Shown: positions 6,479-29,337, counted from the stretch's first letter. The stretch is DNA of 64,000 bases from Alphaproteobacteria bacterium (GCA_040223615.1 JAVKFY010000011.1:125169-189168), one strand, 5' to 3'. Made by a program: numbers and translations. Notes: generated by a model from the letters alone, not told the origin.

Positions 6479-6481
6479 CGT

Positions 6482-8959: not shown

Positions 8960-9097
8960 TGCTCTGTCTCCTCCCAGATCCGTTTCATCGCTGACCGTTG
9001 ATAATGAGGGTCGCGAGTCCGGTCGGCCGGGTCAATGCCCATGCCGTGACAAGCTGAGGTAGACTGCCGGCGTGGACCGGCGGCAGGAGAGTCGAAG

Positions 9098-9475
9098 ATG
9101 TCCGATGAGGAGTTCGCCGCCGGCATGGCGGTGCGCCGCGCGGTATTGGGCGACGCTCACGTCGACCGTGCCGAGGCCGGCAAGACCGAGCTGGACGCCG
9201 AATTCCAGCGCTTCATTACCGAGAGCGCCTGGGGCGGCGTGTGGACGCGGCCGGGCCTGGAACGCCGCGAACGCTCTATGATCACGCTGGCGATCCTGGC
9301 GACGCTGGGCCATTGGGAAGAGTTCGCCATGCACCTGCGGGCGACACGCAACACCGGCGCCAGCGCCGACGACATCAAGGAAATGCTGTTCCATGTCGCG
9401 GTCTATGCCGGGGTACCGGCTGCCAATCGTGGCTTCGCCCTCGCCAAGGAGCTTCTGGCGGCGGACGCCGGCTAG
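9098..9475 (+). CDS. pcaC: 4-carboxymuconolactone decarboxylase
   Basis: 125 aa; RRAVLGDAHVDRA...AWGGVWTRPGLERRERSMITLAILATLGHWEE matches the PcaC/CMD family core. Confidence 0.85.
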   Translation: MSDEEFAAGMAVRRAVLGDAHVDRAEAGKTELDAEFQRFITESAWGGVWTRPGLERRERSMITLAILATLGHWEEFAMHLRATRNTGASADDIKEMLFHVAVYAGVPAANRGFALAKELLAADAG

Positions 9476-9510
9476 GAAGTTTTTCACCCTGCCCATGTAT
9501 TTGAACGGCC

Positions 9511-12500
9511 ATGACGAAGAACCTGGCGGTTAGCGCGCTGCCCCACGGCGCAATCGACATCGGCGAGGCCCTGCGCCTGCTGGCCGACCGGCTGCGCGAC
9601 CTGGTTTGCTATGTCGACAGCGACGAGATCGTTCGCTACGTCAACCGCACCGGCGCCGACTGGTGGGGCTACGCACCGGACGACGCGATCGGGCGCGACC
9701 TGGACGACCTGCTTGGCGGTTACTACGACGAGCTGCGGCCGCTCTACCGGCGGGCGTTGAACGGTGAAACGATCGAAACCGAGCGCAGCGTCGACCATCC
9801 CGACGGCAGGCACCGCGAGGTGTTCCTGACGATGACGCCGCATCGTGACCACGCGGACGCCGTCATCGGCGTGCTGGTGGTCAGCGAGGACCGCTCCAGC
9901 CTGGCCGGCGCCCGCGCGGAAATGCGCCAACACCAGGCGCTGACGGACGAGGCGCTGGCGCACCTGGCGCAGGGCATGCTGGTCTTCGACGGCGCGCACA
10001 AGCTGCGGCTGTGGAACGAGCAGGCCCACACCTTGCGCGATTATCCTCGTGATTTCCTCCGCGACGGACTTAGCTATCGCGAGGTGCTGCAACACAATCT
10101 CGACGCCGGCCTGTTCGGTGACGTCGATCACCGGCAGTTCCTGGCTCGCGTGACGAGTCCGGAAGCAATGGCGCTGCCCGCGCGGCTCGAATTCTCGCTG
10201 GCCAATGGCAACATCGTCGACATGCAGCGCGCGCCGCTGCCCGGCGGCGGCTTCGTGCTGACCTATACCGACATCACCGAGGCGAAGCGCGTCGAGGCGA
10301 AGCTGCGAGATAGCGAACAGCGGTTCCGGCTGATCGTGCAGCGTCTGCCGGTGCCGGCAACCATCGTGCGGATTGCCGACGGCCAGGTTCTGTTCCGCAA
10401 TCCGGAAGCCGAGCAGCAGCTCGTCGATTTTCGCCGCCAGGGGCTGTTCGCGGCGAACAGCGACATCCAGGACATGTGGACCAGCAATCTGGCGAAATGG
10501 CTGGAACTGCCCGACGACGGCGGCTTTCGGCAGCAGGAGTTCCCGGTTCGGGTCAACGGCCAGCAACTGTGGTTCCTGGCCGCCGGACAGCGGCTTGAGT
10601 ATGACGGCGAGCCCTGCCTGTTCGTCACCTGGATCAACATCACCGAAGCCAAGATCTCGCGCGCGGCATTGGAGCGCTCGGAAGCGAACCTGGCCGAGGC
10701 GCAGCGTATCGCCAGCTTCGGAAGCTGGCAGCACGACCTGACCACCGACCGAGCGGTCTGGTCGGCGCACTATTTCACGCTGCTCGGCCTGCCGGCCGAC
10801 GCGCCGCCCAGCTATCAGACGATTCTGGAACTGGTGCACCCGGCCGACCGCGACGACTACAACGCGTTCTTCACCACGGCGATGCGCGAAGGCGCCGGCG
10901 GCGCGCGCGAGTACCGCATCGTGCATCCCGACGGACGGGTACGCACCCTGCGCACGATCTTCCATATCGATCGCGACGAAAACGGCGCCGCGACCCGCGT
11001 CGCCGGCACGACCCAGGACATCACCGACCTGCGCGAGGCGCAATCGGCCCTTGAGGAAAGCGAGGCGCGGCTGCGGCAGGCCTCGACGCTGGCGTCGCTC
11101 GGCCGATGGGTGTGGGACGCCGTGGCCGATCGCTGCACCTACTGCTCTGAGGAGAATGCAGAGATCCACGGCATGTCGGTCGAGGCTTACATGCGCGACG
11201 CCGCGCAACTGGACCAGGAGTTCATGTTTGTCCACGCCGACGACCGTGAGCGGGTCGAAGGGCACTACGCCAAGCTGCGGCAGGGCGAGCCGTTCGACAT
11301 CCAGTACCGGATCGTCACGCCGGCGGGCGAGGTGCGGCACCTGCATGAACTGGCGATGCCGGTGTTCGACGACGACGGCCGCGTGGTTGAGGAGTATGGC
11401 GTCGCGCAGGACGTCACCCGGCTGCTGGAGACCGAACGTGCCCTGGCGGCCAGCGAGGCGCGCTTCCGCGCCGTGGTGAACCAGTCGCCGATCGCCTTCG
11501 TGCTGACCGACGCCGACGGGCGGGTGCAGCTCGTGAACCGGACCTTCGAAGACTGGTTCTCCGTCGCCGCCAGTGACGCCGTCGGCGCGCCGTGTCGCGA
11601 CCTGGTGCCGCCGGAACTGGCACCCGGCATCGATCAGGTCACGGCCGCCGTGGTTGCCGACGGCAAGCCGCGCGAGATGGAGCTCGAACTGCCAGCCGAG
11701 GGCGCGGCGGCACGCGTTCTGCTGTGCTCGGCCTTCCCGATCCGCGATGGCGACGGGACGATTACCGGCATTGGCCACCTCGCGGTCGACGTGACCGCGC
11801 AACGCCACGCCGAGGAGCGGCTGCGCCACAGCCAGAAGATGGAAGCGGTCGGCCAGATAACCGGCGGCGTCGCGCACGATTTCAACAACCTGCTGACCGC
11901 GGTGATCGGCAACCTGGACTTGCTGGCGCTGAATGTCGCCGCGGACGACGATTCCCGGCGGCTGATCGACACGGCGATCCGCGCGGCGCAGCGCGGCGGC
12001 CGCCTGACACAGCAACTGCTGGCCTTCTCGCGCAAGCAGGTCCTGGACCCGGTGCCGACCGACCTGAACGAAGCGGTCAACGAGGTGCTGCCGCTGGCAC
12101 GCACCAGCACGCGCGGACCGATTCACATCGCGACGCAGCTGACGACGGCGGTGAAGCCGGTCGCGGTCGACCGCGGCCAGCTGGAGAACGCGCTGCTGAA
12201 CCTGGTGATCAACGCCCGCGACGCGCTGCCCGACGGCGGCGAGATCACGATCAGCACCGCGAACCAGGCACCCGGCGCCGACCTGGTCGGCCCCCGCGAG
12301 GAAATAGCGCCGGGCGAATACGTGATGATCGCCGTGGCCGACAACGGTGCCGGCATGTCCGCGCGCACCCGCGCCCAGGCAGTCGAGCCGTTCTTCACCA
12401 CCAAGCCGGTCGGCCAGGGCAGCGGCCTCGGCCTGTCGATGGTGTTCGGCTTCGTGAAGCAGTCCGGCGGCCACCTGGCGATCACCAGCACACCCGGCAA

Positions 12501-12954
12501 GGGCACCACCGTGCGGCTGTTTCTGCCGATCAGCGAGGCAACGTCGGCGGTGCGCGTCCGCGATGAAGCCGGCGACAGTTTCGGGCAGGCGCGCGGCGAA
12601 GAGCGCATTCTGGTGGTCGAGGACGATGCCGACGTGCGCCGCTTCGCCGCCTCGGTGCTGCAGCGGCTCGGCTACGACGTGCTGCAGGCGGAAGATGGCG
12701 AAGCCGCGATGGCGCTGATTGCGGCCCGCGACAGCATCGATCTGCTGCTCACCGACGTGGTGCTGCCCGGTACGGCCGGCGGCACCGACGTCGCCGATGC
12801 TTTCCAGGCGCGCTTCCCGCACGGCCGTGTCCTGTTCACCTCGGGCCACGTCGGCGACGGCAAGGCACCGGACGGGCCGATCCTGGAAAAGCCCTACCGC
12901 ATCGACACCTTGGCGCAGCGCATCCGCGAGGCGCTGGACGCGGCGCGCTCCTAG
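9511..12954 (+). CDS. cytoplasmic multi-PAS hybrid sensor histidine kinase / response regulator
   Basis: No TM segments, several PAS/PAC blocks, HisKA H-box ([12 protein letters not shown]), HATPase G-boxes, C-terminal receiver ([12 protein letters not shown]...[11 protein letters not shown]). Confidence 0.9.
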
Positions 12955-16549: not shown

Positions 16550-17524
16550 CTACCCCAACACTTCCGTGTTGATCACATTGGCCGGGTCGAGCTTGCCGTC
16601 GAAGCAGTCGAGGCAGTTCTGCGCCGCCGTGGCGCCCATGCGGTACATCGACTCCTGGGTCACGCCGGCCGAGTGCGGGCTGACCAGGATGTTGTCGTAC
16701 TTGAACAGCGGCTCGTCCGGCGTCGCGGGCTCGACCACAAAGGGATCGATGCCGGCGCCGGCGATGGTCTTCTTCTCCAGCGCGTCGCACAGCGCTGCCT
16801 CGTCGACGATGCCGCCGCGCGCGGTGTTGACCACGAAGGCAGTGGCCTTCATCGCCGCCAGCTCCTTGGCGCCGACCATGCCGTCGGTCTCCTCGTTCTT
16901 CGGGCAGTTCACCGACAGGAAGTCGATGTCGCCCAGCACCGCGCGCCAGTCTTCCACCGGCGTCGCCCCGGCGGTGACGATGGCGTCCTGCACCACGTAG
17001 GGGTCGTGCACCAGCACGTTCATCTCCATCGCCACGCAGCGCGGCACCAGGCGGCGGCCGATGCGCCCGAAGCCCAGGATCAGCACGGTACGGCCGGCCA
17101 GGTCGTAGGCCGGCGGATCGAAGCGCACCAGCCAGTTGCCCTTGCGCGTCTCGCGGTCGTACAGCACCGCGCGCTTGGCCAGCGCCAGCATGAAGAACAG
17201 CGCGTGCTCGGCCACCGTCACCGAGTTGGCGATGCCGACCACCGCCAGCGGGATGTTGTGATCGGTGAGCGCCGGCACGTCGACGGCGTCGTAGCCGACA
17301 CCGTGGCGCGCGACGATCTTCAGCTTCGTGCCGGCCTCGATGATGCGCCGCGTGAACGGCGCCACGCCGAGGATGGCGCCGTCATAATCGGCGATGCGCT
17401 GCAGCACGTTGTTCTCCGACGGGTCGGTGATGTGGTCCCACTCGACGTCGTCGCGGCCGTCCAGCACGCCCTTCAGGCCGGCGCCCACGCCCGGCATCAA
17501 CACCATGATCCGCTTCTTGCTCAC
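16550..17524 (-). CDS. D-isomer-specific 2-hydroxyacid dehydrogenase (NAD-binding)
   Basis: 324 aa; GxGxIGxxxA Rossmann (ILGFGRIGRRL) and catalytic R/E/H arrangement. Confidence 0.85.
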   Translation of the reverse strand: MSKKRIMVLMPGVGAGLKGVLDGRDDVEWDHITDPSENNVLQRIADYDGAILGVAPFTRRIIEAGTKLKIVARHGVGYDAVDVPALTDHNIPLAVVGIANSVTVAEHALFFMLALAKRAVLYDRETRKGNWLVRFDPPAYDLAGRTVLILGFGRIGRRLVPRCVAMEMNVLVHDPYVVQDAIVTAGATPVEDWRAVLGDIDFLSVNCPKNEETDGMVGAKELAAMKATAFVVNTARGGIVDEAALCDALEKKTIAGAGIDPFVVEPATPDEPLFKYDNILVSPHSAGVTQESMYRMGATAAQNCLDCFDGKLDPANVINTEVLG

Positions 17525-18366
17525 TTGCTTCCTCCCAGGCCGGCCAGCAGCCCCTTAATGTACCCGGCGCTGACCGCCGCCGTCGTCGGCCCGTCGGGCC
17601 GGTAGATGAATGGCTCCAGCGCCATCCAGCCGTCGTATCTATAGCGCTTCAGCGCCCTCAGGATCGACGCGAAATCGTCGGCGCCCTGGCCCGGACCGCG
17701 CCGGTTGCCGTCGTTGAGTTGGATGTGCGCCATGTGGCCGGAGCGCCAGTAGCGCGCGATCAGGTCGGCGACCGGCGGTTCGGTCGGCGTATTGGCCACG
17801 GCAGCGCAGTCGATCATGGTGCGCAGGCCGGGGCTGTCGACCTGGTCGACGATCGCGGCCGCCTCGGCCAGCGAGGTGACGAAGTTGGCCATCGGCGGCG
17901 CCAGCGGTTCGATGCAGTAGGTCACGCCGCAGCGCGCCGCGGTCTCGGCGACGCCGGCCAGCGCCTCGATGCCGCGCCGGCGCGCGGCCGCCTCGCCCTT
18001 GCCCCTGGGCAGTCGGCGCTGCGCCGGCGAACCATGCACCAACACGTCGCCGCCGAGTTCGGCGCAGAGCTCGGCCAGGCCGTGCATCACCTCCAGCGTC
18101 CGCGCGCGCTGCGTCTTGTCGGCGGCGGTGATCGACAGGCCCTTGGGCGCCAGCAGCAGCCAGTGCAGCCCGGACACCGCGACACCGGCATCGGCGGCGG
18201 TCTTGCGCAACGTCTTGATGCGGCGCGACGACAGCCGGTGCGGTGCCTCCGGCTCGACCGTGTAAGGCGCCAGTTCCAGGCCCTCGTAGCCGAGTTCGGC
18301 GGCGACGTCGCATTGCCGGCGCCACGACCACGGCGCCAGCACCTCGTTGCACAAGGACAGCCTCAT
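17521..18366 (-). CDS. sugar phosphate isomerase/epimerase (xylose-isomerase-like TIM barrel)
   Basis: 281 aa; start overlaps downstream dehydrogenase (ATGA); TIM-barrel isomerase-like sequence (ELGYEGLELAP...). Confidence 0.7.
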   Translation of the reverse strand: MRLSLCNEVLAPWSWRRQCDVAAELGYEGLELAPYTVEPEAPHRLSSRRIKTLRKTAADAGVAVSGLHWLLLAPKGLSITAADKTQRARTLEVMHGLAELCAELGGDVLVHGSPAQRRLPRGKGEAAARRRGIEALAGVAETAARCGVTYCIEPLAPPMANFVTSLAEAAAIVDQVDSPGLRTMIDCAAVANTPTEPPVADLIARYWRSGHMAHIQLNDGNRRGPGQGADDFASILRALKRYRYDGWMALEPFIYRPDGPTTAAVSAGYIKGLLAGLGGSK

Positions 18367-18446
18367 CGGCCGGCACATTCATGTTCAGGCATAGAAAGGT
18401 CCACGCTTGCGGGCGTGCGCCGAAGCCCTCTAACATCAGCAGAAGT

Positions 18447-18468
18447 AACCAACTGGTTATTTCTGGTT
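18447..18468. promoter_or_regulatory. near-palindromic candidate operator AACCAACTGGTT(N5)TGGTT in divergent promoter region
   Basis: Seen in sequence between divergent isomerase and PHP-like genes. Confidence 0.25.
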
Positions 18469-18484
18469 CCGCGGCGGAGGGCCG

Positions 18485-19972
18485 ATGGCGCGCGATCACC
18501 GCATTCTGTTCGGCGACATCCACAATCACAACGCCTACGGCTATGGCGTCGGCTCGATGGAGCGATCCATCGACATCGCGCGCACGCATCTCGACTTCTT
18601 CGCCTTCACCGGCCACGCCAGCTGGCACGACATGGTGCCGATGGAGGGCGGGCGCGAGAACCACTGGATCAAGGGCTTTGCCAAGCTGGCCGAGGGCTGG
18701 CCGATGGTGCAGTCGCTGATTGCCGACGCCAACCGGGCCGACGAGTTTTCCGCCTTCCTGGGCTACGAGTGGCATTCCAGCCAGTTCGGCGACCAGTGCG
18801 TGGTGTTTCCGGAGGACAACCGGCCGCTGGTGCTGCCCGACCACGTCGACGAGCTGCGCCGGTTCTGCGTCGGCGAAGGCGCGCTGATGATCCCGCATCA
18901 CCTGGCCTATCCGACCGGCCGGCGCGGCGTGAACTGGGAAGTGTTCGACCCGGCCTGCACGCCGGTGGTCGAGATCATGTCGGAACATGGCAATTCCGAG
19001 CACGACCGCGGCCCGAACGACTACATCACCCATTCGATGGGCGGCCGGGTCACCGCGAACACCGCCCGGCACGCGCTGGACCGCGGCCTGCGCTTCGGCT
19101 TCGTCGGCTCGACCGACAGCCACTCCGGTTTTCCCGGCGCCTATGGCGAGGGGCTGATGGCCGCGGTGGCGCCGGACAACTCGCGCCGCGCCATCATCGA
19201 GGCGATCAACGCCCGGCGCACCTACGCGTTGACCGGCGACCGGATCGAGGTCGACTTCACCGTCGACGGCGAGATGCTGGGCGGCATCCTGCCCGCGCGC
19301 GACGCCGTCGAGGCGGCCTGGGACGTGCGCGGCCGCGACGAGCTCGACGTGGTCGAGGTGATCTGCAACGGCCACGTCGTGCACCGCGACTTCCCCGGCT
19401 TCCCGGCCGCCGACGCCCTGTTCGGCGAGGGCGTGCAGCTGCGCCTGGAATGGGGCTGGGGACCGTGGGGCGATCTGGCGCTGGAACGCACCTGCGACTG
19501 GCGCTTCGACATCGCGGTCAAGGGCGGCCGGCTGCACCGCGCCTTCCCGTGCCTGCAATCCGGGCCGTTCGACGAGGCGCGCCGGCACCGGGTGACGCCG
19601 ACCGGCGCGAACGCGCTGGCCGTCACCTCCTACACCTCGCGGCGCGGCGCCTACCGGCAGAACCCGAACCAGTCGCTGGTGCTGGAGCTGGACGGGGACG
19701 CCGCGACCGAGGTCGAGGTGAAGCTGAGCCAGCCGGTCGGGCAGACCTGCACGACAACTCTCGGCGAACTGGCGCGGGGCTCGAAGATCGAGTTCACTGG
19801 GCCGTTCCCGAAGGAGGCCTACCAGTTCCACCGCCTGGTGCCGCGTCGCGCCAGCGCGGTTGCCGGCCGCGCCGCCATCGATGTGCCGGGCGGGCGCGGC
19901 TACGTCTACCTGCGCGTCAAACAACAGAACGGACACCTGGCATGGATCAGCCCGGTGTTCATCGGAACCTAG
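18485..19972 (+). CDS. PHP-like metal-dependent hydrolase of unknown function (DUF3604-like)
   Basis: 495 aa; N-terminal ILFGDIHNHNAYGYGVG (DxHxH metal site) and further His/Asp clusters; first gene of operon with tctCBA. Confidence 0.5.
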   Translation: MARDHRILFGDIHNHNAYGYGVGSMERSIDIARTHLDFFAFTGHASWHDMVPMEGGRENHWIKGFAKLAEGWPMVQSLIADANRADEFSAFLGYEWHSSQFGDQCVVFPEDNRPLVLPDHVDELRRFCVGEGALMIPHHLAYPTGRRGVNWEVFDPACTPVVEIMSEHGNSEHDRGPNDYITHSMGGRVTANTARHALDRGLRFGFVGSTDSHSGFPGAYGEGLMAAVAPDNSRRAIIEAINARRTYALTGDRIEVDFTVDGEMLGGILPARDAVEAAWDVRGRDELDVVEVICNGHVVHRDFPGFPAADALFGEGVQLRLEWGWGPWGDLALERTCDWRFDIAVKGGRLHRAFPCLQSGPFDEARRHRVTPTGANALAVTSYTSRRGAYRQNPNQSLVLELDGDAATEVEVKLSQPVGQTCTTTLGELARGSKIEFTGPFPKEAYQFHRLVPRRASAVAGRAAIDVPGGRGYVYLRVKQQNGHLAWISPVFIGT

Positions 19973-19986
19973 AAAGGGAGGCAGAC

Positions 19987-20949
19987 ATGCTCACCACCAT
20001 CAATCGCCGTGCCGTCGTCGCCGTACTGGCCGGCGTCGGCGTCCTGGCCGTCGCCGGCGGCGCCATCGCCGAGAGCTATCCGGACAAGCCGATCACCTTC
20101 GTCGTGCCGTGGCCGGCCGGCGGGCGCACCGACATCGTCGGCCGCATCGTCGCCTCGTCGATCGGCTCGGTCCTGGGCCAGCCGGTCGCGGTGGTGAACC
20201 GCACCGGTGGGCGCGGCGCGGTCGGCACCAAGTTCGTGCTCGACGCCCCGAAGGACGGCTACACCGTGCTGGTGACCACGCCGGGCAACCAGATCCTCGG
20301 TCCGGTGCACAATCCGGATATCGGGTTCAAGCCGATGGACTTCCGCGGCATCGGCCGCGTCGCCTCGGGCGCGGTGGTGCTGGCAGCCGGCGCCGACCAG
20401 CCGTTCAAGACGGCCAAGGAGATGCTGGACTACGCCAAGGCACATCCGGGCGAACTCAGCTATTCCGGCGTGAAGAACGTGCTGCCGTGGCTGGCGGCGG
20501 AGTCGCTGGCCAAGAATGCCGGCGTGTCGTTCAAGCACGTGCCGTCGAAGGGCGACGCCGACGCGGTGCCGATGGCGCTGGGCGGCCACGTCAACATGGT
20601 CTCCTCGTCGTCGGTGAACGCCATCGCGCCGCACCTGGGCGGTGGCAAGATCACGCCGCTGGTGGTGTTCGCCGACGAACGTCTGGCCGAGCTGCCGGAC
20701 ACCCCAACCGCCAAGGAGCTGGGCTACGACATCACCGCCAGCCCTTGGACCGGCCTCGCGGTGGCCAAGGGCGTGCCGGAGGATCGCATCGAGATCCTGC
20801 GCAAGGCGCTGAAGCAGGTGATCGAGGACAAGACCTTCCTCAACTTCGCCAGCCAGTCGAAGACGCTGGTGTCCTATGCCGACGGCGCCGCCTTCGAGCA
20901 GCAGTGGGCCAGCGAATACGGCAACTTCTCGGCTGTCGTCGGCAAGTAG
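19987..20949 (+). CDS. tctC: tripartite tricarboxylate transporter substrate-binding protein
   Basis: MLTTINRRAVVAVLAGVGVLAVAGGAIA signal peptide then Bug/TctC family fold; AAAGGGAGG RBS. Confidence 0.9.
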   Translation: MLTTINRRAVVAVLAGVGVLAVAGGAIAESYPDKPITFVVPWPAGGRTDIVGRIVASSIGSVLGQPVAVVNRTGGRGAVGTKFVLDAPKDGYTVLVTTPGNQILGPVHNPDIGFKPMDFRGIGRVASGAVVLAAGADQPFKTAKEMLDYAKAHPGELSYSGVKNVLPWLAAESLAKNAGVSFKHVPSKGDADAVPMALGGHVNMVSSSSVNAIAPHLGGGKITPLVVFADERLAELPDTPTAKELGYDITASPWTGLAVAKGVPEDRIEILRKALKQVIEDKTFLNFASQSKTLVSYADGAAFEQQWASEYGNFSAVVGK

Positions 20950-20964
20950 CCGACGACCCGGCCG

Positions 20965-21432
20965 GTGACCCAGGCGACGCGCGACCTGAGCGCGGGGTTG
21001 CTGCTGGCGGCGCTCGGATGCGCGTTGCTGGCGGCGATCCCGAGCCAGGTCGGCATGGGCGACGGCGGCTGGTTCTCGCCGGCCTTCATGCCGGCGGTGA
21101 TCGGCATTGTCATCGTCGCGCTGGCCCTGTTGCTGGCCGTACAAGGCTGGCTGCGGCGGCACCAAGAAGTCGTGGCGCGGGTCGAAGGCCGCGGGCGGGC
21201 GTGGCTGGCGATCTGCGCCGTCGTTGCGATCATCGCCGGTCAGGCCGCGTTGATGACATACGCCGGCTACATCGCCACCGGCGCGGTGGCGGTGGTGTTG
21301 CTGGCGCTGACCTATGGGCATCGGCGCTGGTGGCATCTAGTGTTGCTCGCAGTCGTGGTGCCGCCAGCGCTGCAACTCTTCTTCCGCTACACCATGCTGG
21401 TGCTGCTGCCGCAGGGCAGCTGGCTGGGCTAG
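20965..21432 (+). CDS. tctB: tripartite tricarboxylate transporter small permease
   Basis: 155 aa, 4 TM helices, GTG start. Confidence 0.75.
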   Translation: MTQATRDLSAGLLLAALGCALLAAIPSQVGMGDGGWFSPAFMPAVIGIVIVALALLLAVQGWLRRHQEVVARVEGRGRAWLAICAVVAIIAGQAALMTYAGYIATGAVAVVLLALTYGHRRWWHLVLLAVVVPPALQLFFRYTMLVLLPQGSWLG

Positions 21433-21492
21433 ATCATCTCCCGCTTGCGCGGGAGCGGGCCGGCGCAGACTAGACAGGAAACACACTGGGCC

Positions 21493-22989
21493 ATGGAACA
21501 CCTGGCGGCGGGCCTGGACCTGATCCTGGCATGGCAGAACGTGGCGCTGATGGCGCTGGGGCTGGTGGTCGGCATCGTCATCGGCGCCATTCCCGGGCTC
21601 AATGTGCCGCTGGCGGTCGCGCTGGCCCTGCCGTTCACCTTCCACCTGCCGCCGCTGGCCGGCCTGTCGATGCTGCTCGGCATCTACAAGGGCGGCACCT
21701 ATGGCGGCTCGATCGCGGCCGTGCTGATCAACGTGCCGGGCACGCCGGCGGCGGCCGCCACGGCGATGGACGGCTACAAGCTGGCGCGCGCCGGCAAGGC
21801 CGGCAAGGCACTGAAGACCTCGCTTTACGCCTCGGTGTTCGGCGAGCTTGTCTCCGATATCGTGCTGATCGTGCTGGCCGCTCAGGTCGCCCGGATCGCG
21901 CTCGCCTTCGGGCCGCACGAGTTCTTCGCTCTCGGCCTGTTCTCGCTCACCATCATCGCCCTGGTCTCCGGCAAGAGCCTGACCCGTGGGCTGCTCTCTG
22001 GCGCCGTCGGGGTACTGCTGGCCACCGTCGGGCTGGACCCGCTGGACGGCGAGGTGCGGCTCGCCTTCGGGGTCTACGAGCTGACCGGCGGGCTCAACTT
22101 CATCGCCCTGATCATCGGCGCCTTCGCCATCGCAGAATGTCTGGTGCAGGCGGAGAACCGGGCGCTCGGCAAGCTCGCCGCGCAGGTCCTGTCGATGTCG
22201 GCCGAACGCGCCGACAACCGGGTCAGCGCGGCCGAATTGCGCGCCCTGCTCCCAACCGTGCTGCGCGGCACCGGCATCGGCGTGTTCATCGGAGCGATTC
22301 CCGGCATCGGCGCCGCCATCGCCGCGTTCATGAGCTACGGCTTGGCCAAGCGTCTGTCGAAACAGCCGGAGACGTTCGGCGAGGGTGCGCTGGAGGGCGT
22401 GGCTGCGGCGGAAAGCGCCAACAACGCGGTTACCGGGTCCACGCTGATCCCGCTGCTGACGCTCGGCATCCCCGGCGACGTGATTACCGCGATCATGCTG
22501 GGCGCGCTCACCGTGCACGGCCTGATCCCCGGCCCGACCCTGTTCCAGCAGCAGGGCGACTTCGTCACCGCACTGCTGATCGGCATGCTGATGGTCACCG
22601 GCCTGCACCTGGTGATCGGCCGGCTCGGCCTGCCGCTGTTCATCCACGCGGTGCGGCTGCCGCCCGGCATCCTGTTCCCGCTGGTGGTGATGCTGTGCGT
22701 CACCGGCACCTACGTCGCCACGTCGAACACCTTCGACGTCTTCGTGATGCTGGCCTTCGGGGTGCTGGGCTATGGCATGGTGAAGTTCGACTTTCCGATC
22801 CCGCCGCTGCTGATCGGCTTTATCCTGGGGCCGCTGGTCGAGGTGTCGCTGCGCCAGGCGGTGATCCTGTCGAACAACGGCGCCTGGGATTTCGTCACCC
22901 GCCCGGTCAGCGCCGGGTTCCTGGCGCTGACCGTGATCGTCATCGGCTCGGTGATCCGGCAGCGGTTGAAGCAAGCGAGGCAGACATGA
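21493..22989 (+). CDS. tctA: tripartite tricarboxylate transporter large permease
   Basis: About 498 aa polytopic permease starting MEHLAAGLDLILAWQNV... Confidence 0.88.
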   Translation: MEHLAAGLDLILAWQNVALMALGLVVGIVIGAIPGLNVPLAVALALPFTFHLPPLAGLSMLLGIYKGGTYGGSIAAVLINVPGTPAAAATAMDGYKLARAGKAGKALKTSLYASVFGELVSDIVLIVLAAQVARIALAFGPHEFFALGLFSLTIIALVSGKSLTRGLLSGAVGVLLATVGLDPLDGEVRLAFGVYELTGGLNFIALIIGAFAIAECLVQAENRALGKLAAQVLSMSAERADNRVSAAELRALLPTVLRGTGIGVFIGAIPGIGAAIAAFMSYGLAKRLSKQPETFGEGALEGVAAAESANNAVTGSTLIPLLTLGIPGDVITAIMLGALTVHGLIPGPTLFQQQGDFVTALLIGMLMVTGLHLVIGRLGLPLFIHAVRLPPGILFPLVVMLCVTGTYVATSNTFDVFVMLAFGVLGYGMVKFDFPIPPLLIGFILGPLVEVSLRQAVILSNNGAWDFVTRPVSAGFLALTVIVIGSVIRQRLKQARQT

Positions 22990-24116
22990 AGATCGAACGC
23001 ATCGAGCTGTTTCCGGTGGTGCTGCCGCTGCGCGCGGTGCTGACCCTGCCGCGTGGCGCCAGCCGGACGCTGGCCGAGGGCAAGCAGGTGATCCTGGTGA
23101 AGATGACCGGCGACGACGGCACCGTCGGCTGGGGCGAGGCCGGGCCGAGCCGGCGCTGGTCGGCGGAGACCACGCATTCGACCTACACCAGCATCAAGCA
23201 TTACCTGGCACCGGTGCTGATCGGGCGCGACCCGTTCGACATCGCCGGCCTGCACGAGGCGATGAATACCGAGCTGGCGCCGGGGCTCGATCCCGGCCAA
23301 CCCGTTGCGAAAGCGGCGCTCGACATGGCGGCGCACGACCTAATCTGCAAGAAGCTCGGCATCAACCTGCAGACCTGGCTCGGCGCCAAGGCACGCGACC
23401 GGATCGCGCTCTCCTACCTCGTCTCCGCGCCGACACCGGACAAGATCTCGGAAGTCGTCGCCAAGGGCCTGGCGGAAGGCTTCCGCGCCTTCAAGGTCAA
23501 GGTCGGCCACGACCTCAGCCTCGACATCGACAACGTCAAGGCGGCGCTGGCCGCCGCGCCAGGCTGTGTGGTGTGGCCGGATGCCAACCAGGGCTACACG
23601 CTGGACCAGGGATTGCGCGCGGCGCGCGCCTTCGAGGCGCTCGGCATCGAGCTGTTCGAGCAGCCGATCCCGATGACCGACGTTTACGGCATGCGCAAGC
23701 TGCTCGCCGCGACGACGATGAACATTGCGCTCGACGAGGCCGCGATGGGCCTGCCCTACGTCATCGAGCTGATCCGGCGCGAGGCAGTCGAGGGCCTGGT
23801 GGTGAAGGTCAACAAGGTCGGCGGCATCCACTATGCGCGCCAGCTCTGCGACCTGGCGCGCAATGCCGGCTTCAGCCTGATCGGCTCCGGCCTGATGGAC
23901 GCACCACTAGGCTTCGCCGCCTCGGTGCACCTGTTCGCCGCCTACGGCATCGACTTCCCGGTCGACCTCAACGGGCCGCAGCACCTGTCCGGCGACTATC
24001 TCGCCGAGCCGCTGCCGATGGACGGGCAGGACGCGCTGGTACCGACAGTGCCGGGCCTGGGATGCGTCGTGGACGAGGAACGGATCGCCGGGGAGTTGCG
24101 TTTGGACCTGGCATGA
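22986..24116 (+). CDS. enolase-superfamily enzyme (mandelate racemase / muconate lactonizing enzyme family)
   Basis: 376 aa; MKIERIELFPVVLPL...KVKVG...WPDANQGY...ALDEA; start overlaps tctA stop (ATGA). Confidence 0.85.
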   Translation: MKIERIELFPVVLPLRAVLTLPRGASRTLAEGKQVILVKMTGDDGTVGWGEAGPSRRWSAETTHSTYTSIKHYLAPVLIGRDPFDIAGLHEAMNTELAPGLDPGQPVAKAALDMAAHDLICKKLGINLQTWLGAKARDRIALSYLVSAPTPDKISEVVAKGLAEGFRAFKVKVGHDLSLDIDNVKAALAAAPGCVVWPDANQGYTLDQGLRAARAFEALGIELFEQPIPMTDVYGMRKLLAATTMNIALDEAAMGLPYVIELIRREAVEGLVVKVNKVGGIHYARQLCDLARNAGFSLIGSGLMDAPLGFAASVHLFAAYGIDFPVDLNGPQHLSGDYLAEPLPMDGQDALVPTVPGLGCVVDEERIAGELRLDLA

Positions 24117-25480
24117 ACCGGGCACCGATTTCGACGAGATCCGCGGCCTCGCGACTGGCCGGCTGGCTCGTCGCGATCGCCCTGGTGTTCAGCGCCGGAT
24201 TCGCGGCCGCGCAGGACGCCGGTGACGCCAAGCCCGCCAGCACCATCGACGTCAAATCCGACGCCGACACCGACGCCAGCATCGCCCTGCGGCTCGGCGG
24301 CATCTATGACGCGCTCAGCGCCTTTCGCGGCGTCGAGATCGAGGTCGATGCCGGCGTGGTCAGCCTGAGCGGCACCGTGGCCGACTCCGCCTCGGTCGAA
24401 GAAGCCGCGGAGCTGGCACAGCGGGTCCAGGGCGTGGTGGCGGTGCGCAACGACATCGCGGTGGATGCCTCGCTTGGCGACCAGCTGACCCCTGCCTACG
24501 AACGTCTGACGGAGCGACTGCAGCTGATGGTCGGCCTGCTGCCGCTGATCGCGGTGGCACTCATCGTGTTCGTTGTCTTCCTGATCGTCGGCCTGTGGGC
24601 GGCGCGAAGCTGGGCCTTGTGGGACCGGATCGCGCCAAACGCTTTCGTCGGCGACCTGATCCGGCAGATCGTACGCATCGCCTTCATCGTCGGCGGCGCG
24701 GTGGTGGCGCTCGACATCCTGAGCGCCACCGCCTTGCTCGGCACGTTGCTGGGTACCGCCGGACTGGTCGGGCTGGCCGTCGGCTTCGCGGTCCGCGACA
24801 CCATCGAGAACTACATCGCCTCGATCCTGCTCTCGATCCGGCAGCCGTTCCGGCCCAACGACCACGTCCGGATCGAAGGCTTCGAAGGCCACGTGATCCG
24901 GCTGACGTCGCGCGCCACGATCATCATGACACTGGACGGCAACCACGTACGCATCCCCAACGCGACAGTGTTCAAGGGCGTGGTGGAGAATTTCAGCGCC
25001 AATCCGGAACGGCGCTTCGAGTTCGTGCTCGGTATCGATGCCGACGCCAGCCTGCGCGACGCGCTCGACCTCGGACTGGCGACGCTGGACCAAATCGACT
25101 TCGTGCTGAAGGAGCCCGAGCCGGTCGGCCTCGTACAGGATGTCGGCGACTCCAATGTGCTGCTGTGGTTCTCCGGCTGGATCGACCAGCGCGCCACCGA
25201 TTTCGGCAAGGCACGCGGCGAGTCGATCCGGCTGACCAAGCGGGCGCTGGAGAATGCCGGCTTCGGCCTGCCGGAACCGATCTACCGGCTGCGCATGGAA
25301 GGCACGCCGGCGACCCTGTCGACCACGCCACCAGCCAGACCGACAGCGCCGGAACCGCCGGCCGACAGCGCCGAAGCGGGCGACGCCTCGATCGAGAACG
25401 CGGTCGCCGAAAAGGTTGCCGAGGAACGCGCGCGCGGCGGCGAGGACGACCTGCTCGACCCGACGCGGCCGACCGAGTGA
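24113..25480 (+). CDS. mechanosensitive channel, MscS family, with N-terminal signal peptide and BON domain
   Basis: Signal peptide, BON-like block (GVVSLSGTVADSASVEEAAELAQRVQGVVAVRNDIAV), TM helices and MscS beta domain; start overlaps upstream stop (ATGA). Confidence 0.8.
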   Translation: MNRAPISTRSAASRLAGWLVAIALVFSAGFAAAQDAGDAKPASTIDVKSDADTDASIALRLGGIYDALSAFRGVEIEVDAGVVSLSGTVADSASVEEAAELAQRVQGVVAVRNDIAVDASLGDQLTPAYERLTERLQLMVGLLPLIAVALIVFVVFLIVGLWAARSWALWDRIAPNAFVGDLIRQIVRIAFIVGGAVVALDILSATALLGTLLGTAGLVGLAVGFAVRDTIENYIASILLSIRQPFRPNDHVRIEGFEGHVIRLTSRATIIMTLDGNHVRIPNATVFKGVVENFSANPERRFEFVLGIDADASLRDALDLGLATLDQIDFVLKEPEPVGLVQDVGDSNVLLWFSGWIDQRATDFGKARGESIRLTKRALENAGFGLPEPIYRLRMEGTPATLSTTPPARPTAPEPPADSAEAGDASIENAVAEKVAEERARGGEDDLLDPTRPTE

Positions 25481-25557: not shown

Positions 25558-27855
25558 CTAGCCGCGCAGTGCGCGCCAGACCCGTTCCGGGGTCGCCGGC
25601 ATCTGGATCTCGGCGCCGTTCAGCGCGTCGCGGATCGCGTTCATGATCGCGGCCGGCGCGCCGGACGTCGCGTTCTCGCCGGCGCCCTTCACGCCAACGG
25701 GGTTGTCGGTCTCGATCACCTCGTTGGTGGCGATGGCGAAGTCCGGCAGGTCGTCGGCGCGCGGCATGGTGTAGTCCATGAAGCTGCCCGACAGGGTCTG
25801 GCCGCTGCCAGGGTCGTAGACCACGTCCTCAAGCAGCGCCTGGCCGATGCCCTGGGCGGCGCCGCCGTGCATCTGGCCATCGACGATCATCGGGTTCACC
25901 ACCCGGCCGACGTCGGCGACGATCGAATAGCGATCCAGGCGGACCTGGCCGGTGGCGGGATCGATCTCGACCTCGGCGACGTGGCAGCCGTTGGAGTGCG
26001 CCTCGCGCTCGGTCAGGAAGTCGTGCTGCGCCGCCAGCCTCTTGCCCTGTCCGGCGGCGAAGCTCGCGACCTCGGCCAGGGTAGCGGCGCGGTCGGTGCC
26101 CTGGATGGTGAAGCTGCCCCCGGTATAGGCGATGTCGGCGGCCGCCGCCTCCAGCAGTTCGGCGGCCAGCTCGGTGCCGAGCTTGACCATGTCGCGGGCG
26201 CCGAACACCACCGCGGCACCGCCGATGCGCGCGGAGCGCGAGCCGTGCGAGCCGGAGCCGCGCGCGACCCGGTCGGTGTCGCCATAGGCAACCTTGATCG
26301 CCTCGAACGGCACACCGAGCTCGTCGGACAGGATCTGCGCGTACATCGTCGCGTGGCCCATGCCGAAATCCTGGGTCCCGGCGAGCAGGGTGATGGTGCC
26401 GTCGTCCTCGGCGACGACCTCGGCGAACTCGCCCGGCGCGCCGCCGTCATTCTCGATGAACAGCGACACGCCGATGCCGCGCTTCAAGCCCTTCTCCTCC
26501 GAGGCTTCGCGACGCGCCGCGAAGTGATCCCATTCGCCAAGGTCCAGGGCCCGGGCCAGGTTGGCGGTGAACTGGCCGGAGTGATAGACGGCGCCGCCCG
26601 GCGCGGTCCACGGCATCTCGGCAGGCGTCACCAGGTTGCGCCGGCGCAGCTCGATACGGTCGTGGCCGGTCTCGCGCGCGGCCTGGTCGATCAGGCTCTC
26701 GATCAGGTAGTTGGTCTCGACCCGGCCAATGCCGCGATAGGCGGCCTGCGGCGTGGTGTTGGTGAACAGCGAGCGAATAGAGATGTCGGCGGCGGGAATG
26801 CGGTAGACGCCGCCGATGGTCGGCGGCAGGAAGTTGATGATGACCCAGATGTTGCGGCTGGGGATGTAGGCGCCGTGGCGCCAGTCGATGTTGGCGCGCA
26901 CCGCCAGGAAGTTGCCGTCGGCGTCGAGTGCCAGTTCGGCGCGCATCACGTGGTCGCGCGACTGGTTGTCGGCCAGGAAACTCTCGGCCCGGTCGGCGGT
27001 CCACTTCACCGGCCGGCCCAGCAGCCTGGCCGCCGCCAGCGTGAGCGCGAATTCCGGATACACCCCGCCGCGCGCACCGAAGCCGCCGCCGGTGTCCGGC
27101 ACCACCACGCGCAGGTTCTCCATCGGCATGTCGAACATCGCCGCCAGGCCGGCACGCATGCCGTGCGCGCCCTGACAGCCGACGTGCATGGTGACGTGGT
27201 CGTCGCCGTCGGGCTCGGCCAGGCAGGCGCGTGGCTCCATGAAGGCGATGACGACGCGATTGTTGACCAGGGTCATGGACGTGACGTGCGCTGCCTGCTC
27301 GAACGCCTGCTTCGCCGCCGCTGCGTCGCCGCCGGCCCAGTCCAGCGACACGTTGTCGGGCGCGGCGTCCCACAGCGGCGCCTCGGCGGCCAGCGCCTGC
27401 TCGATGGTGACCGCCGCCGATAGTTCGTCGTAGTCGACCTCGACGGCCTGTGCCGCGTCGCGCGCCTGTTCCAGCGTGTCGGCGACGACGAAGGCGACCG
27501 GCTCGCCGAGATAGCGCACCCGGTCGGTCGCCAGCGGATACTGCGAGGCGTCGGTCGCCGGCTCGCCGTCGCGGCCGCGCACGTCGAACGGCGGTTCCGT
27601 GGTCAGCGACGGGATCGGATGCTTGATCACGTCGCGCAGGTCGGCTGCGGCGTAAACCGCGCGCACGCCCGCCATCGCCCGCGCCGCGCCGGTGTCGATG
27701 GCGCGGATCGTGGCGTGCGGATGCGGCGAACGCACCACGATCGCAGTCAGTTGGCCGTCGCGGGTCAGATCGTCGCTGAACTGGCTGGCGCCAGTCAGAA
27801 AGCGGCGATCCTCGACCCGCGGGACCGACGCGCCAATACCCTTGTGCTCTGTCAT
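25558..27855 (-). CDS. xanthine dehydrogenase / aldehyde oxidase / CoxL-family molybdopterin-binding subunit
   Basis: 765 aa from MTEHKGIGASVPRVEDRRFLTG (a/b-hammerhead then MoCo domains); GAGGG RBS; upstream 154 aa of track ORF is artefact. Confidence 0.88.
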   Translation of the reverse strand: MTEHKGIGASVPRVEDRRFLTGASQFSDDLTRDGQLTAIVVRSPHPHATIRAIDTGAARAMAGVRAVYAAADLRDVIKHPIPSLTTEPPFDVRGRDGEPATDASQYPLATDRVRYLGEPVAFVVADTLEQARDAAQAVEVDYDELSAAVTIEQALAAEAPLWDAAPDNVSLDWAGGDAAAAKQAFEQAAHVTSMTLVNNRVVIAFMEPRACLAEPDGDDHVTMHVGCQGAHGMRAGLAAMFDMPMENLRVVVPDTGGGFGARGGVYPEFALTLAAARLLGRPVKWTADRAESFLADNQSRDHVMRAELALDADGNFLAVRANIDWRHGAYIPSRNIWVIINFLPPTIGGVYRIPAADISIRSLFTNTTPQAAYRGIGRVETNYLIESLIDQAARETGHDRIELRRRNLVTPAEMPWTAPGGAVYHSGQFTANLARALDLGEWDHFAARREASEEKGLKRGIGVSLFIENDGGAPGEFAEVVAEDDGTITLLAGTQDFGMGHATMYAQILSDELGVPFEAIKVAYGDTDRVARGSGSHGSRSARIGGAAVVFGARDMVKLGTELAAELLEAAAADIAYTGGSFTIQGTDRAATLAEVASFAAGQGKRLAAQHDFLTEREAHSNGCHVAEVEIDPATGQVRLDRYSIVADVGRVVNPMIVDGQMHGGAAQGIGQALLEDVVYDPGSGQTLSGSFMDYTMPRADDLPDFAIATNEVIETDNPVGVKGAGENATSGAPAAIMNAIRDALNGAEIQMPATPERVWRALRG

Positions 27856-28122
27856 CTGATTGCCCTCTTCCGCGCGCATGATGCCGTTCGCAGGGGGCAA
27901 CGCCAAGCACCGGCTTGCTTGACACGTACCGGCGCCCGTGCGATGCGACCACAGGTTTTGTCCGCGAATGCGCGACGGACGGCGACATGCCGATTCCCTC
28001 CCGGGCCAGGCCGTTTGAAATCGTTCGCGCCGCAATCGCGCGTGGCGGCGAACACAAGGGCACCACGACACGACGACCGCCGAGAAGGGCTGACGCGTGG
28101 GTGCGATAGGCAGAATTACAGT

Positions 28123-29337
28123 TTGACCGACACGACGTTTACCGGCCTCGGCCTCGCCGAGCCGTTGATACGTGCACTGAACCAGGCACGCTTCACCCAA
28201 CCGACTCCCATTCAAGCCAAGGCGATCGGACCGATCCTGCAGGGTCGCGACCTGCTCGGCCTGGCACAGACCGGCACCGGCAAGACCGCGGCCTTCGCGC
28301 TGCCGTTGCTGCATCACCTCGCCGCCGATACCGCGCCCCTGGCCAAGCGGTCGGTGCGGGCGCTGATCCTGGCGCCGACGCGCGAACTGGCGCTACAGAT
28401 CCAGGCCGAGATCAAGATGCTGTCGGCGCACCTGAAGCTGCGCAGCGTCACCGTCATGGGCGGCGTCGGCCGCCAGCCGCAGGTGCGCGCGGTGGCGCGC
28501 GGGGCCGACATCATGGTCGGCACGCCTGGCCGGGTGCTCGACCTGTTGCAGGCCGGCGACATGCGCCTCGACACGTTGACCCACTTCGTGCTCGACGAGG
28601 CCGACCGGATGCTCGACTTCGGCTTCATCCGCGACATCCGCAAGATCGTCGAGCGGCTGCCGGAGAAGCGCCAGTCGCTGCTGTTCTCGGCCACCATGCC
28701 GGACGACGTCGCCAAGCTGGCGGCGACGATCCTGGACCGGCCGGAGCGGGTCGAGGCTGGCCGCGACAAGATGATTGCGCCCGAGCGTATCGACCAGCAG
28801 GTGCATTTCGTCGCCCAGGGCGACAAGCGCGCGCTGCTCAACCAGTTGCTGGCCGATGGCCAGGTGGCGCGGGCGATCGTGTTCACCCGCACCAAGCACG
28901 GCGCCAACCGCGTCGCCAAGCACCTGATGACCGACGGCACCGAGGCGGACGCGATCCACGGCAACAAGAGCCAGTCGGCGCGGCAGACCGCGCTGGCCCG
29001 GTTCCGCGACGGCCGCGCCCGGGTGCTGGTCGCCACCGACATCGCCGCGCGCGGCATCGACGTGGCCGGCATCAGCCACGTGTTCAACTTCGACCTGCCG
29101 AATGTCCCGGAAAGCTACGTGCACCGCATTGGGCGGACCGCGCGCGCCGGGGCCAGCGGCACGGCGGTGTCGTTCTGCGACGCCAGCGAGGTCGAGTATC
29201 TGCGCGACATCGAAAAACTGACCGGCCATCGGTTGCAGGTCATCGGCGGCGGCGCCCCGGACACCGTCGCGACCAAGGCGCCGAAGAAGCCTCGACGGAA
29301 CAGAAACCGCGGCCGGCGGTTCCAGAAAGCGGCCTGA
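28123..29337 (+). CDS. DEAD-box ATP-dependent RNA helicase (RhlE-like)
   Basis: Q-motif, AQTGTGKTAAF, DEAD, SAT, HRIGRTARAG; start assigned to in-frame TTG (no ATG upstream), so start is uncertain. Confidence 0.85.
   Translation: MTDTTFTGLGLAEPLIRALNQARFTQPTPIQAKAIGPILQGRDLLGLAQTGTGKTAAFALPLLHHLAADTAPLAKRSVRALILAPTRELALQIQAEIKMLSAHLKLRSVTVMGGVGRQPQVRAVARGADIMVGTPGRVLDLLQAGDMRLDTLTHFVLDEADRMLDFGFIRDIRKIVERLPEKRQSLLFSATMPDDVAKLAATILDRPERVEAGRDKMIAPERIDQQVHFVAQGDKRALLNQLLADGQVARAIVFTRTKHGANRVAKHLMTDGTEADAIHGNKSQSARQTALARFRDGRARVLVATDIAARGIDVAGISHVFNFDLPNVPESYVHRIGRTARAGASGTAVSFCDASEVEYLRDIEKLTGHRLQVIGGGAPDTVATKAPKKPRRNRNRGRRFQKAA

Follow-up and report, generated by a model that had tools for sequence, protein, structure and literature searches.

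Does a compact group of genes in an Alphaproteobacteria genome make up one catabolic system and, if so, for which kind of compound? The genes lie between positions 16550 and 25480 of a 64,000-nucleotide stretch of DNA (GCA_040223615.1, JAVKFY010000011.1:125169-189168; the whole stretch is referred to below as the window). They encode a PHP/DUF3604-like protein (here protein A), the TctC, TctB and TctA components of a TTT transporter, an enolase-superfamily enzyme (Eno), a mechanosensitive channel with a BON domain (BON-MscS), a xylose-isomerase-like TIM-barrel enzyme and a 2-hydroxyacid dehydrogenase. On balance, we lean towards reading this cluster as a regulator-less copy of a widespread module for uptake and catabolism of a polyanionic carboxylate, which elsewhere would be controlled by a TetR-type repressor and its operator.

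The window has a G+C content of ∼69%, and its open reading frame lists are full of shadow frames; the real genes were picked by frame profiles of third-position G+C (GC3) and by Pfam matches. On the plus strand, protein A (18485–19972; 495 amino acids) carries a match to PF12228 (DUF3604) in residues 223–260 only. It is followed by tctC (19987–20949; 320 amino acids, a TctC/Bug-type periplasmic solute receptor; PF03401, E 2.5e-40), tctB (20965–21432; 155 amino acids, small membrane subunit with a GTG start; PF07331, E 8e-14) and tctA (21493–22989; 498 amino acids, large membrane subunit with an alternative TTG start at 21445; PF01970, E 4e-142). Next come Eno (22986–24116; 376 amino acids, MLE subgroup of the enolase superfamily, with MR_MLE_N and MR_MLE_C domains, each scoring above its cut-off) and BON-MscS (24113–25480; 455 amino acids, with BON PF04972 and MS_channel_2nd PF00924, likewise above cut-off, coding by GC3 from 24113). 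The divergent minus-strand genes encode the TIM barrel (17521–18378, with an alternative start at 18366; 285 amino acids, AP_endonuc_2, E 3e-40) and the D-isomer-specific 2-hydroxyacid dehydrogenase (16550–17524; 324 amino acids, 2-Hacid_dh_C, E 9e-53, and 2-Hacid_dh). An earlier sequence-only reading of the locus had counted five plus-strand genes, where the present calls give six, and it had placed the start of tctC 1 nucleotide off, although the gene itself is present; its family assignments were upheld by Pfam for all eight genes, including the divergent pair. The operon-like packing that it described from tctA onward is also seen, with ATGA stop/start overlaps both at tctA/Eno (22986–22989) and at Eno/BON-MscS (24113–24116). 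The remaining plus-strand spacers measure 14, 15 and 60 nucleotides, and the two minus-strand genes overlap by 4 nucleotides.

Conservation of the cluster and its accessory genes

The neighborhood of A was compared at 80 loci encoding an A homologue, which came from 80 different genome assemblies of Alpha- and Betaproteobacteria, SAR324, Trueperaceae, Opitutales and Rhodothermia. Relatives of each window gene were located by tblastn, genes were re-called with a codon model trained on those matches, and 1159 proteins from 81 loci were clustered. Orthologues of Eno (59–83% identical) were found beside A in 62 of the 80 loci, and the same number of loci had a TctC-type receptor beside A. TctA was present in 34 loci, TctB in 25, orthologues of the TIM barrel (44–59% identical) in 30 and a TetR regulator with a TetR_C_29 domain in 37. 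Eno directly follows A in 35 of 78 cases, and when only the 43 loci with 6 kb or more on each side are counted, Eno lies within 8 kb in 34 and TctC in 37.

Three gene orders recur. In the first, TIM< | A> (TetR>) TctC> TctB> TctA> Eno>, the window is joined by its closest relatives, L001 and L077, whose A and Eno proteins are 68–71% and 79–83% identical to those of the window. Clusters that share this order (L001, L077, L005, L050, L055 and L066) have a TctC 66–76% identical to that of the window, and TctA is 71–79% identical in the closest clusters. The second order, TIM< | A> Eno> TctC> TctB> TctA>, occurs in marine Rhodospirillaceae, and the third, DHDPS-like> (ABC genes>) A> Eno> TctC> (TctC>) TetR> TIM>, in Burkholderiales; the betaproteobacterial versions carry orphan TctC genes only. 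An Opitutales locus reads TetR< A> GNAT> Zn-dependent alcohol dehydrogenase> TIM> and has no Eno.

The sequence-only reading would have been contradicted if these genes were never co-localized in other genomes. The neighborhood comparison found the opposite, since the linkage of A, Eno, TTT components and TIM barrel recurs in dozens of genomes from several phyla. Its proposal of a single catabolic unit thus stands for these genes, whose conservation supports a shared function as one catabolic unit, and falls for BON-MscS and the dehydrogenase. By the same comparison Eno is taken to be a conserved partner of A, and the TIM barrel a conserved cluster member. No orthologue of the dehydrogenase occurs in the 80 related loci, where only paralogues of 28–31% identity were found, in 4 loci; judged from these neighborhoods, the dehydrogenase is an addition specific to the window.

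A separate arrangement was seen in Trueperaceae, TIM> A' (35% identical)> Eno' (a divergent MR_MLE protein)> A>. In the metagenome-assembled genome of locus L065 this tandem set spans 6298–11488, includes a divergent enolase-superfamily protein of 417 amino acids and has TctCBA upstream, an arrangement suggestive of an old duplication of the A/Eno enzyme pair. Together with the Opitutales locus, it shows the gene association holding among divergent paralogues and across phyla.

Related clusters also carry accessory genes. A DHDPS/N-acetylneuraminate-lyase-like protein of 354 amino acids, with weak PDB matches, is encoded in 24 loci, often with a 4-nucleotide overlap with A. A GNAT protein with an Acetyltransf_18 domain was found in 15 of the 81 clustered loci, and 15 loci encode an SDR of the 'epimerase/dehydratase' type. 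Other neighbors include an ABC transporter with an SsuA/NMT1-type receptor, an arylsulfotransferase (ASST)-like beta-propeller, a MetE-like protein, a PhyH dioxygenase, CrtI/CrtO-like flavoproteins, a second enolase-like protein, sulfatases, a trio of GFO_IDH_MocA, DUF993 and TIM proteins, and Zn- and Fe-dependent alcohol dehydrogenases, the latter scoring near 4-hydroxybutyrate dehydrogenase (467 bits against a cut-off of 500). In NCBIfam, no model matched the DHDPS-like, GNAT, SDR-like or ASST-like propeller proteins. None of the accessory genes of related clusters is present in the 64-kb window, which therefore holds a minimal version of the cluster.

Two further observations concern genes adjoining the A/Eno pair. 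In a Rhodothermales metagenome-assembled genome (L075, 8117–9976), a heparinase II/III-like lyase gene lies 9 nucleotides upstream of A, and in three alphaproteobacterial loci (L024, 6920–8311; L028; L009) sulfatase genes with an SGSH_C domain directly follow Eno. The lyase and the sulfatases are a hint that substrates may derive from sulfated or uronate polysaccharides.

The operator and the missing regulator

The divergent promoter region between the TIM barrel and A contains an inverted repeat at 18440–18465, CAGAAGTAACCA-AC-TGGTTATTTCTG, with 12-nucleotide arms that are 92% complementary. Its core, AACC-N4-GGTT, occupies 18447–18458 and lies 38 nucleotides upstream of the A start codon. 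The window core TAACCAACTGGTTA is the sole perfect match to TAACCANNTGGTTA in the 64 kb, in which the same pattern with two mismatches or fewer has 3 matches against 0.11 expected. Of the 49 loci in which A has its own upstream region, 29 have the core, in the form AAC(C/T)-N4-(A/G)GTT, at 18–180 nucleotides (mostly 26–89) before the start codon of A. It also occurs at TetR|TctC, at divergent ABC-receptor|DHDPS-like and at other cluster promoters, and cluster promoters with the core were found in about 40 loci. Intergenic DNA contains 0.51 copies of the core per kb and coding DNA 0.015, a 34-fold difference.

This distribution argues for the palindrome as a genuine, predicted operator of the cluster, presumably bound by a TetR-family repressor for which the window has no gene. 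What had been noted as a near-palindrome is real, longer than described and conserved across related clusters, whereas the additional TGGTT half-site that had been included with it was rejected as part of the operator, as it is conserved in no related locus. From its conservation, the palindrome turns out to be the likely regulatory signature of the whole regulon.

No TetR orthologue was detected in the 64-kb window by tblastn (E 1e-5), and none was found among the 45 window proteins scanned with Pfam. The earlier statement that no regulator is present thus holds for the cluster and for the window, but not for related clusters, which carry the TetR (TetR_C_29) gene, for example at 11710–12276 in L001. 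Since the window has no TetR homologue, its copy of the cluster would be either controlled in trans or derepressed, the TetR gene having been lost or moved elsewhere. A consensus promoter/terminator scan of the intergenic regions gave nothing useful, and an Rfam scan of 16–26 kb detected no RNA family.

Elsewhere in the window, the region 56001–58000 has a G+C content of 0.61 (∼0.69 elsewhere) and contains two weak operator-like matches, each with 2 mismatches, at 56998 and 57155. A hybrid sensor kinase of 1147 amino acids, with at least five PAS domains, HisKA, HATPase_c and a receiver, is encoded at 9511–12954 on the plus strand, two genes upstream of RecQ; no evidence was found that this kinase controls the cluster.

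Protein A, its partner enzymes and the candidate substrate

Protein A begins with MARDHRILFGDIHNHN, in which D11-H13-H15 form a DxHxH motif. Its match to DUF3604 scores 35.3 bits (gathering score 20.4) but covers only 38 of the 591 profile positions, with residues 223–260 aligned on positions 379–416. Compared with canonical DUF3604 proteins (∼590 amino acids), A is ∼100 residues shorter and forms a tight family of its own. The CehA/McbA metallohydrolase model NF038032 aligns with residues 10–301 at 52.1 bits (E 6.5e-14), below its 80-bit cut-off, a score that indicates homology and not membership of that family. CehA/McbA proteins are carbaryl hydrolases, which cleave a carbamate. Thirteen residues of A, namely D11, H13, H15, H44, H48, E95, H97, H138, H139, E167, H168, D211 and H213, are invariant in 56 homologues. 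Among relatives as distant as 28% identity, H13, E95, H138, H139 and H213 still do not vary, and the conservation of H15 and D211 is 90% or higher. The proposed PHP-like metal site, which would have lost its basis had the DxHxH motif varied among homologues, is thus borne out by the conservation of its ligands.

A PDB sequence search with A detected no solved structure, and its fold was examined in an AlphaFold model, which has a predicted local distance difference test (pLDDT) score of 84 and a predicted template modeling (pTM) score of 0.87. A PHP barrel (approximately residues 1–260) is followed by C-terminal beta-sandwich domains of ∼230 residues, so both the metal-ligand set and the barrel fold of the PHP superfamily are found in A. 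The structures nearest to the model, at 16–18% identity, are TM0559 (2anu), BVU_3505 (3e38) and PsfC (7rty). They share with A a distorted (beta/alpha)7 PHP barrel with HxH, E, H, H and DxH ligands, and BVU_3505 also has a C-terminal beta domain, as in A. PsfC is an oxidative decarboxylase, whereas TM0559 and BVU_3505, annotated as phosphoesterases, have no known function. The suggestion to compare a predicted structure of A with solved ones thus led to a PHP barrel whose neighbors are uncharacterized PHP proteins and PsfC. A differs from all three by its ∼230 residues of beta-sandwich and by an almost invariant low-confidence loop. This loop, residues 169–189 (18989–19051 in the window), has pLDDT values below 50 and an almost invariant sequence, the conserved positions in or next to it being H168, G169, E172, D174, R175, G176, H183, S184, G186, G187 and R188. 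Most likely the loop acts as a movable lid over the active site and sets specificity. As modeled, A is a putative cytoplasmic two-domain metalloenzyme of the PHP fold, from a DUF3604-related family without a characterized member.

The family is large. Homologues 63–71% identical to A number in the hundreds and occur in Alpha- and Betaproteobacteria, SAR324, Rokubacteria and other groups, and a representative library at 50% identity contains 236 clusters of the family at E < 1e-30 and 1714 at E < 1e-10. Public annotation of A reads 'DUF3604 domain-containing protein', and the literature on DUF3604 yielded nothing relevant to function. Long A homologues (1033–1327 amino acids) showed no informative domain fusion, having either CARDB or nothing in addition.

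Eno has the features of the MLE subgroup: a KxK motif at the end of strand 2, D/E/D ligands for Mg2+ on strands 3–5 and a lysine on strand 6. Residues K170-V-K172, D199, E225, D250, K274, K277, D305, D327 and N329 are invariant in 58 orthologues, and the catalytic residues align with those of 1jpm and 2p88. Its cap loops are rich in arginine (R27, R56 and R57 do not vary, and R23 is kept in 85% or more of the orthologues), which suggests that the Eno substrate carries a second anionic group. In the PDB, Eno comes closest to 2qde (function unknown), 2p88 and 1jpm (L-Ala-D/L-Glu epimerase), with muconate cycloisomerases next; 2p88, which we take to be an enzyme of the N-succinyl-Arg/Lys racemase type, is named in its PDB entry only as an MR/MLE family protein. 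All NCBIfam equivalogs scored Eno below cut-off, among them the muconate/chloromuconate cycloisomerase model TIGR02534 (179 bits, cut-off 335) and the dipeptide epimerase models NF041118 (124 of 500 bits) and NF011708 (63 of 343 bits). The DxD motif that follows strand 8 in dipeptide epimerases, where it binds the ammonium group of the dipeptide, reads D327-L-N329 in Eno. Public names of the Eno orthologues are generic and mutually contradictory.

The transporter components TctC, TctB and TctA all score above their gathering thresholds and are encoded by contiguous genes. In its three components, their order and the periplasmic location of TctC, which starts with a signal peptide (NRRAVV...AIA-ES), the window agrees with known TctCBA transporters and Bug receptors (BugD, BugE and the terephthalate-binding TphC/TBP). 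The nearest solved relatives of TctC are 25hk and 4x9t, which have no informative names, BugE (2dvz) and BugD (2f5x); matches to BugE, BugD and the terephthalate binding protein range from E 1e-37 to 1e-29 and are too distant for a transfer of specificity. BugE binds Glu and BugD binds Asp. The TIM barrel belongs to the AP_endonuc_2 fold family, and its nearest characterized relatives are ketose 3-epimerases and the 5-keto-L-gluconate epimerase IolO, far below the respective cut-offs (IolO 70 of 300 bits, psicose epimerase 62 of 300 bits). The dehydrogenase contains both 2-hydroxyacid dehydrogenase Pfam domains and is of a generic PGDH/GhrB type; it reached no NCBIfam equivalog (PGDH 238 of 454 bits, GhrB 148 of 492 bits).

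In the mechanism that we propose for the module, TctC would capture an anionic carboxylate in the periplasm and TctAB would import it, as expected from their families. Eno, with its Mg2+ site (D199/E225/D250) and its lysine acid/base pair (K170/K172 and K277), would abstract the proton alpha to the carboxylate. The resulting Mg2+-stabilized enediolate would then undergo epimerization, cycloisomerization or dehydration. A, through a di- or trinuclear metal center formed by H13/H15, E95, H138/H139, H168 and D211/H213, would break or rearrange a bond of the ester, lactone, amide or phosphoester type, and the TIM-barrel enzyme would isomerize or epimerize the keto product. In the window, the dehydrogenase may interconvert a 2-oxo and a 2-hydroxy acid toward central metabolism; it and BON-MscS would have been recruited in this lineage only. 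A TetR-type repressor would bind AACC-N4-GGTT between the divergent promoters until released by the substrate or an intermediate.

The substrate is tentatively assigned as an acid sugar or a sugar-acid lactone, possibly uronate-derived, an assignment that we hold at somewhat short of even confidence. This class is preferred because most accessory genes, the window TIM barrel and the dehydrogenase are of sugar or sugar-acid type, and because there is a precedent in the oxidative galacturonate pathway. The oxidative D-galacturonate route of Agrobacterium tumefaciens uses an SDR-type uronate dehydrogenase, then Gli, an amidohydrolase-superfamily lactone isomerase, Gci, an enolase-superfamily lactone cycloisomerase, and the DHDPS-family KdgD (PMC6353982). 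The likeness consists in a metal-dependent enzyme of amidohydrolase/PHP type for lactone handling and an enolase-superfamily cycloisomerase acting on an acidic sugar derivative, with a DHDPS-family enzyme and an SDR-type dehydrogenase also present in related clusters. There are differences, however: A is a two-domain PHP-fold protein and not an amidohydrolase_2 protein, and Eno is only a distant relative of Gci. The window also uses a TTT transporter and has a ketose-epimerase-like TIM barrel in its core. The initial guess of an acid sugar or hydroxy-dicarboxylate stays the best-fitting class, with neighbors of an acid-sugar flavor.

Several observations weigh against this account of the cluster. 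No cluster enzyme reaches the curated cut-off of any characterized family, and about one-fifth of the loci, mostly those in which A is only 55–59% identical, lack both Eno and the TTT genes. Eno scores 140–149 bits against structures of N-succinylamino-acid racemase (NSAR), dipeptide epimerase and muconate cycloisomerase but 64 bits against the galactarolactone cycloisomerase 4ggb, the nearest liganded TctC relatives are the amino-acid binders BugE and BugD, and the GNAT gene beside A is easier to reconcile with an amino compound than with a simple sugar acid. The classical PHP enzymes act on phosphoesters, and PsfC, the closest characterized structural neighbor of A, is not a hydrolase. Co-transcription and regulation, finally, are inferred from gene spacing and motif conservation.

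Some of these observations would be explained by a pathway for N-acyl or N-substituted amino acids or dipeptide-like compounds, in which Eno racemizes or epimerizes the alpha-carbon and A is a metallo-amidohydrolase that removes the N-substituent, with GNAT as the acylating enzyme. We regard this as unlikely overall, although it is the leading alternative. The N-succinylamino-acid racemase route converts D- to L-amino acids by a logic of acyltransferase, racemase and metallohydrolase, and its racemase, like L-Ala-D/L-Glu epimerase, shares the KxK, D-E-D and K set with Eno, whose best characterized relatives are 2p88 and 1jpm. The two-lysine arrangement of Eno is that of a 1,1-proton transfer, its arginine-rich cap loops could bind a distal carboxylate, and the fold of A is known beyond phosphoesters from its carbamate-cleaving CehA/McbA relatives. 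The receptors nearest to TctC point the same way, as do the recurrent GNAT acyltransferase, found even in Opitutales without Eno, and the DHDPS-like protein together with a Rossmann protein that has a weak DapB_N match. The acyl-diaminopimelate pathway has a similar logic, in which an acyltransferase, a deacylase and an epimerase act in turn, and related clusters could be matched to it through the DHDPS-like, DapB_N-like, acyltransferase, deacylase and epimerase proteins. An analogy to the diaminopimelate pathway itself was rejected, the DapB_N match being marginal (E 0.007) and no aminotransferase being present, and is kept only as a flavor of the amino-acid alternative. However, the replacement of the dipeptide-epimerase DxD by D327-L-N329 speaks against such chemistry, and the AEE, DgcA, NSAR/OSBS and cis-3-hydroxyproline dehydratase models all score Eno far below their cut-offs. 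The hydrolase of the N-succinylamino-acid racemase pathway has an M20 fold, in contrast to the PHP fold of A, and the GNAT gene occurs neither in the window nor in most loci. An amino-acid pathway would also leave unexplained the conserved ketose-epimerase-like TIM barrel and the sugar-type oxidoreductases, lyase and sulfatases of related clusters.

It is less probable still that A is a PsfC-like dinuclear-iron oxidase or oxidative decarboxylase acting on a hydroxy-dicarboxylate, with Eno and the TIM barrel preparing or consuming its substrate. The structural similarity comes with only 16% identity to PsfC, TM0559 and BVU_3505 score higher, none of the His/Asp/Glu residues typical of hydrolytic PHP enzymes is missing from A, and no phosphonate genes lie nearby.

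To return to the uptake and catabolism module, the prospect that A and Eno define a hitherto undescribed pathway is, in our estimate, nearly even. Together with the DHDPS-like, GNAT, SDR-like and ASST-like families under TetR control, the pair would degrade a common polyanionic compound, and A would act beyond classical PHP phosphoesterase chemistry, whether by lactone or ester/amide cleavage, by lactone isomerization or by oxidative chemistry of the PsfC type.

The channel, the neighboring genes and the wider family

BON-MscS consists of a signal peptide, a periplasmic BON domain, three transmembrane helices and an MscS beta-domain, and the MscS model NF007662 aligns over residues 146–390, so the protein has the full BON+MscS family architecture. 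From its 4-nucleotide overlap with Eno and the finding of no terminator-like site, the channel is probably co-transcribed with Eno. Its presence in a catabolic operon had been singled out as unusual; as none of the 80 A-containing loci encodes a relative, this feature is better seen as a local accident. The BON+MscS architecture has more than 5000 homologues, of which all 120 top ones contain both domains. Of two close homologues, the neighbors are an HWE kinase and a response regulator in one case and stress genes in the other, and in Marinibaculum pumilum A and BON-MscS lie on different contigs. Since relatives are missing from the related loci and occur in unrelated contexts elsewhere, BON-MscS is, as judged by synteny, a passenger particular to this lineage, placed last in the operon and outside the conserved module.

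The opposite view, that the channel is a working part of the operon, for example as a release valve or exporter for an anionic substrate or product comparable to glutamate export by MscCG, is very improbable. The overlap and the lack of a terminator- or promoter-like site between the two genes would fit it, as would a second MscS-family gene in the window that also closes a metabolic operon with a 4-nucleotide overlap, but such overlaps are frequent in this compact high-GC genome, and this large family stands alone, near signaling or stress genes and apart from A in Marinibaculum pumilum. Negligible by comparison is the idea that the cluster consists of unrelated neighbors packed by chance in a compact genome: the window-specific dehydrogenase and channel do show that unrelated genes can be inserted with 4-nucleotide overlaps, but the linkage of the core genes across different phyla, in three gene orders and with a shared operator, effectively refutes chance packing for them.

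The second MscS-family channel (34247–36628, minus strand) has 793 amino acids with MS_channel_2nd and MS_channel_3rd domains. The gene that it overlaps by 4 nucleotides (36625–37356, minus strand) encodes a protein similar to arylmalonate decarboxylases (AMDases) and Asp/Glu racemases and also overlaps an AMP-dependent ligase gene (37353–38927, minus strand). AMDase genes have been reported near TTT and MR/MLE genes (PMC4996985).

The genes flanking the cluster are unrelated to it and convergent, with RecQ ending at 16545 and a molybdopterin hydroxylase ending at 25558; a TPP enzyme, the PAS-rich hybrid kinase and a DEAD-box helicase lie farther out. The molybdopterin hydroxylase (25558–28317, minus strand) belongs to the xanthine-dehydrogenase family and is convergent to the channel gene. 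Paralogues with [2Fe-2S] subunits lie less than 10 kb from A in L011, L012, L073 and L076, which may be chance or a loose link to the oxidation of N-heterocycles or aldehydes; a link between the downstream hydroxylase and the cluster was rejected, as these paralogues are only 28–31% identical. Upstream, the window contains genes for a PcaB-like Lyase_1/ADSL_C protein (4498–5877, minus strand), protocatechuate 3,4-dioxygenase alpha- and beta-like subunits (5909–6478 and 6482–7363, minus strand) and a carboxymuconolactone-decarboxylase-family protein (9098–9475, plus strand). A link to these pca genes, 11 kb upstream, was rejected, as unrelated housekeeping genes lie between.

As a type of system, the cluster is an ordinary regulator-controlled, receptor-dependent operon for uptake and catabolism, and it challenges no current concept; its novelty lies in the conserved combination of enzymes and in the uncharacterized PHP family. 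Proteins of the A family, ∼500 residues long and 55–71% identical across several phyla, have no characterized member, and A is almost always coupled to one orthologue group of Eno, a dedicated receptor and a recognizable operator, which makes it a ready target for function discovery. TctC offers an experimental handle through ligand screening, and the pair of operator and TetR could give a biosensor readout. Marinibaculum pumilum KCTC 42964, Ramlibacter albus GTP1, Frigidibacter sp. ROC022 and Rhizobiales bacterium IMCC20636 are cultured carriers. Solving the cluster would annotate thousands of genes from soil and marine metagenomes that are now listed as 'DUF3604 domain-containing' or 'mandelate racemase/muconate lactonizing'. 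If the proposed role is true, it would be the first function for the PHP branch to which A belongs and would extend the known chemistry of the PHP fold.

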